Assembly (NCBI GenBank): GCA_040766505.1
Contig: JAXGQJ010000004.1
Location: 17,549-81,548, forward strand
Source of the DNA: Clostridiales bacterium
Lineage (GTDB): Bacteria; Bacillota; Dehalobacteriia; UBA7702
Direction: 5' to 3'
Length of the DNA stretch: 64,000 bases
Below the pieces are notes generated by a model. That model had not been told where the DNA came from. It ran no database searches and saw nothing but the letters and a program-made list of their open reading frames with translations. Positions 2,612 through 5,515 of the stretch are shown in pieces. Position 1 is the first letter of the stretch; the number at the start of each line of letters is the position of its first letter. Made by a program: the position numbers and the translations under genes.

Positions 2612-4084
2612 TTAGGCAATCCCCAAATCCTTCTCTTCTTTAAGAATCATTTCCCGGATTTCCTTTTGCACATCTTCGGGCAAAGGCGTCGGCTTATGGG
2701 TTTTTAGGATGCGGATGGCCTCCCGGTCGCATTTTTCCACCAGGCTTTGGCTGCCCTCGGCCTGCCAGACATCGATCATATTGCGGTCGATCCATTTCGG
2801 CGTCGATTGGAAATTGCGCACCCGCTTCATCGTATGGGGTTCCGTCAGATAATTGCCGCCGGGGCCGATCTCCTTGATCAAGTCCACGGCCAGGCTTTCA
2901 TCGTCTCCGGGAATGCCCTGTAACACATGGCGCACCATCGCGGCAAATTCATTGTCCATGACCATCTGGCCATAACCCAAGGTAATGCCGAGTTCCAACA
3001 TGCCGAGACCGTAAATCAAATTGGCGCCGGCCAAAGCCGGCAGCAATGCCGTCAATGTCTTTTCATGGCCGGCCTGAATGTCGGCAAGTTTACTGTCCGC
3101 CTAGCCCCCCGCGACGAAACTGGGAATTTGGTAAAATTGGGCCATCCTCGCCACGGCGGCGCTGATCATACCCAGTTCGGGGCAGCCCACGGTGGCGCTG
3201 GCCCGGCGCAAATCGAGAATTGTGGTGGAGCTGCCATAGGTGACGGGATTGCCGGGGTTCACCATCTGGATCAGCACGATATTGGCGAGAATTTCGGCAT
3301 TGTGCACCACCAGTGTCCCCGCCAGGGTGATGGGGGAGGAGCCGCCGGCCATCGCCATCGACAGCGGATTACAGGGCAAACCGACCTTGGCATATTCCAT
3401 CAACATTTCCGTATTGCCCTTTGCCAAGGTCAATGGGCTGACGGGGCAGCCGCCCCCGGAGATGATCGGCCTTTCCTTCAATTTGTCCACACCGCCGACG
3501 ATCGCCGCCGCCATGGCGATGGCGATTTTCGCCTGGTGGGCGTCTTCCGCTCCCTGGCTTTGGTGCTTCGTTGTATTGCTGAGGGTCGCCTCGGCATTGT
3601 GCAGCATCGCCACCTTTTCATGTTTGTCCCGGGCCGTCAGGGTCTGCTCGATCACGTCGATTTGGTCTAAGGCGTCCACCAGCTTCGCCACATCGGCAAT
3701 GTCTTGCTTTGTTGAAGGGCGGCGCTCCTTCGTATCGGGATCCTCTACCATGATCCCTTCGCCAAAAGTAAGGAAGTTGACGCGCCTTCCCTCCAAAACC
3801 ACATCGTTCTTGGGATCCCTCCCGGCCAACAGCACTTTGGGCGGTGCTTTCCGAATCGCGTCTTCTACGACGGAACCGGGGATCCGCACAATTTTTTTGT
3901 CCCAGTCCACCCGGCAGCCGTGCTCTTCATAGACGGCCATCGCCGCTTCACTCTCTACAAAGATGCCGGTATATTCCAGCACGTCCAAGGTATCGAGGTG
4001 GATTTTATACAGCGTGTCTTCGCTCATCACCTGAAGGCTGAAACCCTCATAGGCGCCGCCGCCGGCGGCATAATTTCTCCTCAT
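2612..4084 (-). CDS. mttB: trimethylamine:corrinoid methyltransferase MttB, pyrrolysine-containing (in-frame UAG at 3101..3103)
   Basis: ORFs 3101..4084 (N-part ending ..MAQFYQIPSFVAGG) and 2612..3055 (C-part) are in one frame separated only by TAG; read-through gives ..[39 protein letters not shown].., the MttB Pyl context; MttB-superfamily similarity over full length. Confidence 0.85.
3101..3103 (-). other. in-frame amber codon, predicted pyrrolysine codon of mttB copy 1
   Basis: cta on plus strand = UAG on minus strand at junction of ORFs 3101..4084 and 2612..3055. Confidence 0.8.
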
Positions 4085-4096
4085 CGTCTCTCCTCC

Positions 4097-5515
4097 TTAT
4101 CCTTCAAGGTCTATACGGGCCTTCGCGGCAATTTCGTCCATGGCGGCCACCACATCGGCGGAAAGCGGCTTTGCCTTATGGTTGGCCAAAATCTCGGCCA
4201 ATCTGTCCTGGGCCAAAGCGCGGTAATTCTGGCCGCCGGCAGCGAAAAGGAAGGAATTTTCCGCCTTTTCCATAAAGATTTCCCGGCGGAAATGGCGGAA
4301 GGTATGGTCGTGGCTGAGGAAATTGCCCCGGGGCCCCATTTCGGCGATCACGTCGAGGGCGGCGGTTTCCGCATCCAGGCTGAACTCCCGCAAATAGGCT
4401 TTGCTGTAACGGTAGACTTCGAGATCGAGAACAACGTCGACCAGCGAAGAGCTGAGACAGCTTTCCCGGGTGCCGAACCAACAGCAAACGTCGGGCCGGG
4501 TCATCAGCTTCATCGCCAGTTTATAGACATTGCGTTCGAACCCGGCGACGGTGGAGAAGTCTTTGAATTCCACGGTGCCGCCAACCTCGGAAGGCAGGCC
4601 GTAGAACCGGGCCATATCCACATCGGCGGCGCCCAAAAGCAAATATTCGCTGTTTTCATAGTCGATGCCACCGGTTCGCAAATCCGGCGCGCCGGCATCG
4701 GAAGAATAGAAGAAGCGGGCGTCTTCGGCGGCGCACTTCGCCACCATATAACAGGCCAGCACCTCGCTGTTGACCAATAGGGTGTCGGCGGCGACGGTCG
4801 CCGGGGAAGTGGTGGTCATCTGTGGCAGCGACATCGGGATGATCGGAATGCCGTGGCGGGCGGAAACGGCAATGGCGTCGGCAATGCCCCCTTCCAGCGC
4901 CAGCGGCGTTGTAGGCGCGGAAAGCAAAGACATGATCGGGTTTTTCCGCAGCCGGTCGGTACCGCCGGTGACGGCGGCAGCCAGCTCGATTTGCCATTGG
5001 GCCAGTTTGCCCGAGGCGGAAGAGCACTGTATATGTTTCGTTAAGTTACGAAACGAAATGTCCAGCGCTTTAAACTCCTGGTATTCCCCGTCAAATTCAT
5101 GGGGGAACATCAGCGGCCAAAAGCAGTCCATATCCGCGGAAGCGTCGGCTAAAATACAAAGCTGGGTCAAATCGTTCTCGGTCACATAACGTTTTTTGCC
5201 ACTGTCCTCGTCTTGAATATAGGGAACATAACCGGCTGGGGTTGTGAAGGGATGCCCGCCGGCGGGAAGGGACAGGGTGTGCTTTTCATCCCTCGCCCCC
5301 AACGGGAAAGAGGAAATGGCGAGGCCCAACATTTCCTTCACCATTTCTGCGGGGAACCGCACATTGTCGCCGATGACCTTGGCCCCCTTTTTCGCCAATA
5401 GGCCGCGAACCTCTTCGCTGCCGATATAAACACCGACGGTGGACAAGAGCTCCAATGTCTTTTCGTGGATATATTCCTGCTCTCCTCTACTTAATAATGA
5501 CAATTGTGTACGCAT
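4097..5515 (-). CDS. MttB-superfamily methyltransferase without pyrrolysine (MtgB/MtpB/MtcB-like quaternary-amine:corrinoid methyltransferase candidate)
   Basis: ORF 4097..5689; uninterrupted frame with sense codons at the Pyl column (..FYGLPSEVGGTVEFKDF..); start set to ATG 5513..5515 (MRTQLSLLSRGEQEY) with AAAGGAGA 7 nt upstream; 12-nt gap to mttB. Confidence 0.8.
   Translation of the reverse strand: MRTQLSLLSRGEQEYIHEKTLELLSTVGVYIGSEEVRGLLAKKGAKVIGDNVRFPAEMVKEMLGLAISSFPLGARDEKHTLSLPAGGHPFTTPAGYVPYIQDEDSGKKRYVTENDLTQLCILADASADMDCFWPLMFPHEFDGEYQEFKALDISFRNLTKHIQCSSASGKLAQWQIELAAAVTGGTDRLRKNPIMSLLSAPTTPLALEGGIADAIAVSARHGIPIIPMSLPQMTTTSPATVAADTLLVNSEVLACYMVAKCAAEDARFFYSSDAGAPDLRTGGIDYENSEYLLLGAADVDMARFYGLPSEVGGTVEFKDFSTVAGFERNVYKLAMKLMTRPDVCCWFGTRESCLSSSLVDVVLDLEVYRYSKAYLREFSLDAETAALDVIAEMGPRGNFLSHDHTFRHFRREIFMEKAENSFLFAAGGQNYRALAQDRLAEILANHKAKPLSADVVAAMDEIAAKARIDLEG

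Follow-up and report, generated by a model that had tools for sequence, protein, structure and literature searches.

A pyrrolysine-free MttB-superfamily methyltransferase encoded beside a pyrrolysine MttB in a predicted sigma-54 operon of a Clostridiales bacterium: a candidate for a non-acidic N-methyl substrate

The turnover of trimethylamine (TMA) by gut anaerobes bears on the cardiovascular risk linked to trimethylamine N-oxide. The MttB superfamily of methyltransferases is large, and few substrates have been assigned within it so far, all of them acidic quaternary amines. The described systems closest to the locus analysed here are the pyrrolysine (Pyl) enzyme MttB of M. barkeri (7XCL), the canonical gene order mttB-mttC-mttP in which mttC encodes the corrinoid protein, and the Pyl-free enzymes MtgB of Desulfitobacterium hafniense (2QNE/9YCE), MtpB, MtcB, MtyB and MthB. 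We have analysed a 64,000-nucleotide stretch of a Clostridiales bacterium (GCA_040766505.1, contig JAXGQJ010000004.1, positions 17,549 to 81,548 of the forward strand), referred to below as the window, in which a Pyl-free MttB-superfamily gene, here called gene A, lies immediately upstream of a Pyl-containing mttB, gene B. A and B are probably two co-transcribed, corrinoid-dependent methyltransferases of one sigma-54 operon, with A acting on a cationic N-methyl substrate that carries no acid group.

The product of A shares with M. barkeri MttB its fold (TM-score, the template modelling score, 0.90) and the position of Gly110, but has Val315 in place of Pyl, Cys for Tyr364 and Asp for Asn361. 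Like MtgB (TM 0.87) and the other Pyl-free enzymes it would be a first-step methyltransferase (MT1) expected to methylate a cognate corrinoid protein; A has neither Arg312 nor His348, however, through which MtgB-type enzymes bind their substrate's acid group, and it also sits elsewhere in the family tree and has no corrinoid, MT2 or BCCT transporter gene beside it. The operon differs from mttB-mttC-mttP in having no mttC corrinoid gene and in its predicted sigma-54 promoter, but shares with it permease genes downstream of mttB, here two of the APC family for which orthology to MttP is not implied. A Pyl-mttB followed by two APC permeases is also found in the Peptococcaceae-type bacterium 'Candidatus Formimonas warabiya' DCMF (CP017634; locus L021), together with a corrinoid gene, a Pyl-free MttB paralogue and a Pyl-mtbB; the Formimonas papers mention numerous paralogues of both the Pyl and the non-Pyl type. 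The Formimonas mttB is 61% identical to B over a 327-residue N-terminal part, but the regulator there is of PocR/AraC type and not a sigma-54 activator, and the Pyl-free neighbour is 24% identical to A and outside its clade. Pyl-free genes beside Pyl-mttB in Formimonas and similar loci were considered as members of the A clade and set aside at 24-26% identity. Pyl-free MttB homologues of unknown substrate ('MtxB') have in addition been catalogued in gut genomes (PMC10653893). We found no description in the literature of the A clade, of its operon pairing with Pyl-mttB or of its missing Arg312. The operon and its regulator comprise the following features, in window coordinates.

5788..7698, minus strand: gene of a sigma-54-dependent activator (bacterial enhancer-binding protein, bEBP), with N-terminal PAS, AAA+ Sigma54_activat and C-terminal HTH_8 domains
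5602..5626, minus strand: terminator-like hairpin with U-tract found by consensus scan, a 9-bp stem followed by ATTTTTTTAT
5562..5577, minus strand: predicted sigma-54 (-24/-12) promoter TGGCATcggatTTGCA, read from the sequence, 46 nt upstream of the A ATG
4097..5515, minus strand: gene A, Pyl-free MttB-superfamily methyltransferase (MT1), 472 amino acids, ATG at 5515, TAA at 4099..4097
4085..4096, minus strand: A-B spacer GGAGGAGAGACG, exactly 12 nt, carrying the ribosome-binding site of B
2612..4084, minus strand: gene B, Pyl trimethylamine:corrinoid methyltransferase MttB, 490 codons, ATG at 4084, TAA at 2614..2612
3004..3103, minus strand: PYLIS_3 element of gene B, beginning at the UAG (Rfam RF02510, 75.8 bits against a gathering score of 38 bits)
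2590..2604, minus strand: short GC hairpin (CCCGC-GUUUU-GCGGG) without U-tract, directly after the B stop codon
1028..2428, minus strand: APC-family permease 1, 466 amino acids (Pfam AA_permease_2, 191 bits)
961..<1, minus strand: APC-family permease 2 (Pfam AA_permease_2), its 3' end beyond the window edge

Gene A matches the Pfam MTTB profile (PF06253, E=6.5e-53) over residues 5-465 (profile positions 31-494 of 500), and scores 258.5 bits against the Pyl-MttB equivalog model TIGR02369, under its curated cut-off of 525 bits. Its Val315, encoded by a sense codon, stands at or adjoining the Pyl334 column in the alignment. The AlphaFold2 model (predicted local distance difference test score 93.8) is a complete MttB-type TIM barrel with N- and C-terminal extensions, for which Foldseek returned TM-scores of 0.87-0.90 to 9yce, 7xcl and 2qne over ~480 alignment columns. 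The best match among PDB sequences is MtgB, marginally (E=1e-44 vs 2e-42 for MttB), at an identity of about 25%, and A is 27% identical to gene B. In the protein database the members of the A clade range from 33 to 100% identity, and all proteins outside the clade are at most 30% identical to A. Both A and B are intact although the window is rich in indels, and the ratio of nonsynonymous to synonymous substitution rates (dN/dS) between the window and its closest relative (L001; loci are numbered in this way throughout) is about 0.05 for A and 0.07 for B. A is thus under strong purifying selection, which rules out an origin as a decayed mttB copy, the alternative that the original prediction had named, and we take it to be most likely a functional, separately evolving enzyme of an uncharacterised MttB-superfamily clade. 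That prediction's account of A as a full-length, distinct member of the superfamily with a sense codon at the Pyl column is borne out by the Pfam match, the selection estimate and the bounds of the clade.

Judged by its sequence, gene B is an ordinary bacterial Pyl MttB that would demethylate TMA. It carries an in-frame TAG (Pyl) at 3103..3101, matches Pfam MTTB at E=4.7e-93, reaches 699.8 bits against TIGR02369, well above the cut-off, and aligns near full length with the M. barkeri MttB chain (7xcm/7xcl, 385 bits). The TAG is aligned to Pyl334, and Gly110, Met249 and Tyr364, whose roles together with that of Pyl334 are taken from PMC9842639, are likewise retained. The PYLIS_3 element is present in the mttB genes of orthologous loci as well. 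The pocket columns match the majority of 121 bacterial Pyl-MttB sequences, and a Glu at the Thr111 column, considered as a sign of an unusual enzyme, proved to be the majority state (97/121). The subclade of B is tight (73-100% identity over the N-terminal part, with sequences beyond it at 63% or less) and tracks the host lineage.

The structure of the operon is consistent with a single transcript. The site TGGCATCGGATTTGCA at 5577..5562 has the -24 GG and -12 GC at the correct spacing and the bEBP gene adjacent to it, and a motif TGGCAY-N5-TTGCW (TGGTAT in L004) recurs ~50-80 nt upstream of the A ATG in the window and in 11/11 orthologous loci. The activator matches PAS_3/PAS_9, Sigma54_activat (229 bits), AAA_lid_14 and HTH_8 in Pfam, its closest NCBIfam model being PrdR-like and below cut-off, and its orthologue stands directly upstream of A in L001-L006 and L008-L012 (54-81% identity); it is the likely regulator of the operon. 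A conserved activator-binding palindrome was sought upstream of the promoter, where nothing common to the loci was found. The hairpin at 5602..5626 is terminator-like, and would end the activator transcript and insulate the operon promoter. Between A and B the 12-nt spacer is, by its length, too small for a terminator or promoter, and a consensus scan of the junction found neither; the orthologous spacers are 8-64 nt long, A/T-rich and without a stable hairpin. Since the spacers are short and free of terminators, the sigma-54 promoter is single and conserved and the synteny is kept, co-transcription of A and B, as originally proposed, is strongly indicated.

The permeases are probably co-transcribed with the two methyltransferase genes. 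A GC-rich hairpin follows the Pyl-mttB stop codon in most orthologous loci (e.g. L004-L010), in L007 directly following A, and that of the window at 2590..2604 is no canonical terminator; its role may be to stabilise the transcript, or to attenuate it, between the methyltransferase and permease genes. The 183-nt spacer between B and permease 1 was also considered as a structured RNA or terminator, and rejected, its z=-1.5 not being significant and its GC hairpins being short and without U-tract. For permease 1 the closest NCBIfam models, all below cut-off, are the amine and amino-acid antiporters GadC, TyrP, AdiC and PotE, which fits a non-acidic amine as the substrate of A. Orthologues of it are encoded downstream of B across L001-L012; in L007 the gene comes straight after A, so that the permease stays with A where B is absent. 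Permease 2 is 61% identical to permease 1 and 68% to the second permease of L003. A listed 200-residue open reading frame (ORF) at 426..1028 on the minus strand is an out-of-frame artefact inside the second permease gene, and finds 'homologues' because out-of-frame translations of paralogous genes look alike.

The substrate of A is best approached through its pocket. According to a 2026 study of MtgB, glycine betaine is bound through its carboxylate by Arg312 and His348, and every member of known function, each acting on acidic quaternary amines, is reported to keep Arg312 (PMC13080624). A has Glu310 in this column, the alignment of its motif FYGLPSEVGG with MtgB FYGVPSRSGG being unambiguous; elsewhere in its clade the residue is Ala, Met, Thr, Leu or Phe, and never Arg in the 63 full-length members aligned. 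The MtgB His348 / MttB Tyr364 column holds Cys345 in A and Cys across the clade. Cys353 is found at MtgB Phe356 and Tyr96 one column off MtgB Tyr97, the aromatic pair that provides cation-pi binding in MtgB and is not conserved across the family (PMC13080624). An Asp at the MttB Asn361 column is common to the whole A clade, to the Pyl-free clade X described below and to the partners of A homologues in subclade IV, and the Ser292 column is Asp in A and Asp or Glu across the clade. In the AlphaFold2 model these residues sit at the C-terminal ends of the barrel strands. The predicted pocket carries Tyr96, Asp273, Asp342 and Cys345, and pocket residues of A are invariant across the clade.

With no Arg in the Arg312 column, A is by its predicted pocket not an enzyme of the betaine/carnitine type, as had been proposed when glycine betaine, proline betaine or carnitine was suggested for it, and the pocket appears fit for a cation that bears no acid group. 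The Arg312 test discriminates within this single genome, as gene C, a further Pyl-free paralogue in the window, has the acid-binding Arg and adjoins a betaine-type BCCT transporter. Neighbour-joining trees place A on the Pyl-MttB side of the family, far from MtgB. Among Pyl-free enzymes MtqB of Methanococcoides acts on tetramethylammonium or choline, the product TMA passing to Pyl-MttB, and its pocket is described as sulfur- and aromatic-rich (PMC13044021); that of A is likewise, with Cys344, Cys345, Cys353, Tyr96 and Trp346. MtqB, however, is a member of the MtmB family of methanogenic archaea and has no homology to A beyond the TIM-barrel class. Chloromethane-type and other non-amine substrates of A were considered and found to have no support, CdmB not being placed in the MttB superfamily by its own paper, where the name stands only in the titles of cited works.

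Relatives of the locus were collected by a metagenome contig scan with narrower alignments, a broad alignment having proved too diverse, and 8-10 kb was read around each. About ten other genomes or metagenome-assembled genomes (MAGs; L001-L006, L008-L010, L012, L013) share the activator-A-B layout; they are labelled Peptococcaceae, Clostridiales or Bacillota and come from human, Hadza, chicken and rumen guts and an anaerobic bioreactor, with A 63-84% and B 73-82% identical to the window genes. The wider A clade falls into four subclades in a neighbour-joining tree. In subclade II, that of the window, Pyl-mttB is immediately downstream of A, whereas in subclade III it lies 24-68 nt upstream of the A homologue (A') in most loci (L031, L032, L035, L037, L038, L040/41, L043, L045-47, L068), and in L015-17 a C-terminal mttB ORF overlaps the A' start by 4 nt. 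PYLIS elements confirm the Pyl genes of subclade III, a PYLIS_3 element doing so for the Pyl codon in L015. After A' in this subclade, which comprises about ten independent loci, a corrinoid gene and then a Pyl-free paralogue of clade X follow wherever the contig continues, and Pyl-mtbB is present in most of the loci. A tight operon in L014 (1898-11006) contains a MerR gene, mtbB(Pyl), a corrinoid gene, mttB(Pyl), an aminotransferase gene, A' (53% identical to A) and an APC permease gene, and the subclade IV loci L051, L063 and L070 carry a Pyl-mtbB adjoining or near A'. The adjacency of A and Pyl-mttB is not due to chance, given that it occurs in two gene orders and in non-sister subclades.

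The partnership is nevertheless not universal. In a Hadza gut Firmicutes MAG (L007, 3900-7000) a sigma-54 promoter, A (64% identical), the GC hairpin and an APC permease gene follow one another, with neither Pyl-mttB nor an activator gene near A, indicating that A and its permease can stand alone. Subclade I has A' followed by a member of clade X, and subclade IV has A' with other paralogues or in tandem arrays. Clade X (L027-L029, L035, L043, L015) follows A-type genes as A'-X or mttB-A'-corrinoid-X; its Pyl column is occupied by Gly, Ala or Ser and its Asn361 column by Asp. Beside an A-type gene there is almost always another gene of the MttB family, be it Pyl-MttB, clade X or other paralogues. 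Two contigs from saline lake and sediment (L059, 4643-11052; L062, 20-7434) bear four or five A-type paralogues in tandem, at 36-39% identity to A, and no Pyl genes, which suggests that substrates have diversified within the A clade.

Taken as a working model, the PAS-containing activator would sense a small-molecule signal and switch on the sigma-54 promoter at 5577..5562, so that A, B and the two APC-type amine permeases would be made together. B would demethylate TMA through its pyrrolysine, and A would take a methyl group from a cationic N-methyl compound without carboxylate or phosphate, candidates being choline-, tetramethylammonium- or methylated di/polyamine-like compounds. Both enzymes would load a corrinoid protein encoded elsewhere, such as that at 40621..41286, from which the methyl groups would pass to tetrahydrofolate. 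As the original prediction observed, the layout is not the canonical one and there is no corrinoid gene adjacent to the operon: Pfam and NCBIfam profiles find none within 1..8000, and only one in the window. The protein encoded there is a candidate partner in trans of A or B. L003 has a corrinoid gene ~5.7 kb further downstream, within the sigma-54 operon that follows. A and B may share a corrinoid protein; in favour of this, the corrinoid gene of the deeper clade comes directly after the mttB-A' pair.

Several observations weigh against this assignment. The substrate class is read off a small number of alignment columns and depends on a negative, the lack of the Arg, and the position of Glu310 is itself variable within the clade. 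The phylogeny called for in the original prediction was approximated by neighbour-joining trees, which put A nearer the Pyl-MttB clade and far from MtgB but have no support values and leave out the characterised MtpB, MtcB, MtyB and MthB sequences. In subclades I and IV, A' has no Pyl-mttB as a neighbour. The window itself holds four MttB paralogues within 64 kb, and Formimonas-type genomes put unrelated Pyl-free paralogues near Pyl genes; in genomes so rich in paralogues, some of the clustering may reflect a methylotrophy island and no specific partnership.

A metabolic relay, in which A takes the first methyl group off a quaternary amine and passes its product on to B, is a possible but less likely explanation. 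It could run from tetramethylammonium to TMA and dimethylamine (DMA), or from another non-acidic quaternary amine to a tertiary amine taken by Pyl-MttB, with Pyl-MtbB and an aminotransferase to finish. Such a hand-over would account for the tight coupling in both gene orders and for the deeper clusters that hold mtbB(Pyl)-mttB(Pyl)-A'-corrinoid as one block; the use of tetramethylammonium by methanogens requires MttB afterwards (PMC13044021), and the Formimonas authors suspected novel roles for Pyl-MttB paralogues (PMC9768040). The L014 aminotransferase, encoded between Pyl-mttB and A', matches E. coli putrescine aminotransferase 4uox at 457 bits (next best 237), a likeness that hints at a di- or polyamine-like end product, and class-III aminotransferases in or beside several clusters suggest that the end product is a primary amine, but they adjoin A' homologues in only a minority of loci. 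L007, which keeps A and the permease without mttB, speaks against an obligatory relay, and the pocket of B, being that of an ordinary bacterial Pyl-MttB, gives no hint of a substrate larger than TMA. Many of the hosts live in gut or rumen, where tetramethylammonium is not expected, and the known tetramethylammonium enzyme MtqB is of the MtmB and not the MttB family. The most extended form of the idea seems unlikely to us: A-type enzymes would relay with Pyl MttB and MtbB to strip all methyl groups from a non-acidic polymethylated choline- or di/polyamine-type amine down to the primary amine, which would then go to a class-III aminotransferase, or, as a variant, A would demethylate a simple methylamine without Pyl. 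Were such an extended relay to operate, the Pyl methyltransferases of these bacteria would act on substituted tertiary and secondary amines, beyond TMA and DMA.

A as a Pyl-independent methyltransferase for a simple methylamine in its own right, whether filling the monomethylamine slot or as an isoenzyme for DMA or TMA, is improbable, even though the clusters have Pyl-mttB, Pyl-mtbB and A' and, within 8-10 kb of the loci, neither a Pyl-mtmB nor a PYLIS_1 element. In such an enzyme the protonated amine would be bound by carboxylates of the active site, which would stand in for the Pyl adduct; the Asp residues at the Asn361 and Ser292 columns beside the Pyl site, and the position of the clade on the Pyl-MttB side of the family, could be cited for it. 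No Pyl-free methylamine:corrinoid methyltransferase is known, however, and arrays of 4-5 A-type paralogues in organisms without Pyl genes suggest diversified, larger substrates. Formimonas excretes monomethylamine as an end product (PMC9768040), so that no step need be missing, and the lack of mtmB and PYLIS_1 fits the same outcome here, with A filling that step the less probable explanation. It is more doubtful still that A is a structural or regulatory partner in a hetero-oligomer with B and no independent catalyst. MttB and MtgB act as dimers, the active site and the corrinoid-protein contact of either subunit being completed by the other (PMC9842639, PMC13080624), and tandem paralogues with very short spacers, nearly always beside an MttB-family gene, could be read in this way; but A occurs without B in L007, the gene order is reversed in another subclade, the invariance of the pocket is that expected of a catalyst, and A evolves faster than B yet under equally strong constraint. 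Least credible is a betaine/carnitine-type enzyme like MtgB, MtpB, MtcB or MtyB. A is indeed a Pyl-free member of the superfamily with MtgB as its marginally best PDB match, but the identity to MtgB is low, the Arg312 salt-bridge residue is missing and His348 replaced by Cys, and the operon has no BCCT transporter, corrinoid or MT2 gene, unlike gene C with its Arg and BCCT neighbour.

The reading of A as a methyltransferase for a non-acidic N-methyl cation would make its clade, in which the residue accounting for every known Pyl-free specificity has no counterpart, a concrete candidate for adding a substrate class to the superfamily, that of non-acidic methylated amines. The clade occurs in organisms from habitats that include gut, rumen and bioreactor, and is genetically tied to the Pyl enzymes for TMA and DMA. 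The A-B operon is therein a test case for cooperation of Pyl and non-Pyl methyltransferases in TMA-consuming gut anaerobes, and a tractable one, being small, with a clear predicted promoter and sensor and two proteins.

The corrinoid gene is part of a second methylamine cluster in the window (35732..44457 on the minus strand and 32446..35162 on the plus strand), the features of which, together with a further mttB, are as follows.

44457..42817, minus strand: PucR-type regulator gene
42690..41302, minus strand: Pyl-mtbB with PYLIS_2 element
40621..41286, minus strand: methyltransferase-cognate corrinoid protein gene (Pfam B12-binding and B12-binding_2; TIGR02370, 211 bits)
40552..39083, minus strand: class-III aminotransferase gene, best solved relative 6jix
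39059..37640, minus strand: gene C, Pyl-free MttB paralogue with the acid-binding Arg
37415..35732, minus strand: BCCT transporter gene
30956..32197, minus strand: mttB2, a second Pyl-mttB (54% identity to B; PYLIS_3 element of its own, 31117..31216)

The aminotransferase scores 383 bits against the taurine:2-oxoglutarate aminotransferase 6jix (next best 279), and an aldehyde dehydrogenase (ALDH) gene and glutamate dehydrogenase fragments adjoin the cluster on the opposite strand. Judged by its gene content, this second cluster may serve to convert an acidic quaternary amine into a primary amine and an aldehyde. The mttB2 gene aligns only to B residues 1-414, the last ~75 residues being absent in every frame, and is a truncated copy or a misassembly; a ComM/Mg-chelatase-like gene (30420..28855) adjoins it. 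Frameshifts occur throughout the window, for example at 38905..38915, 35732..37415, 32446..33954 and 7782..12737, gene C shifting frame near 38910, and the BCCT, ALDH, proS and ispG genes, with the housekeeping genes around them, are broken up into short ORFs. The order of the split genes matches that of the intact genes in L001, which points to indel errors of assembly and not to pseudogenes.

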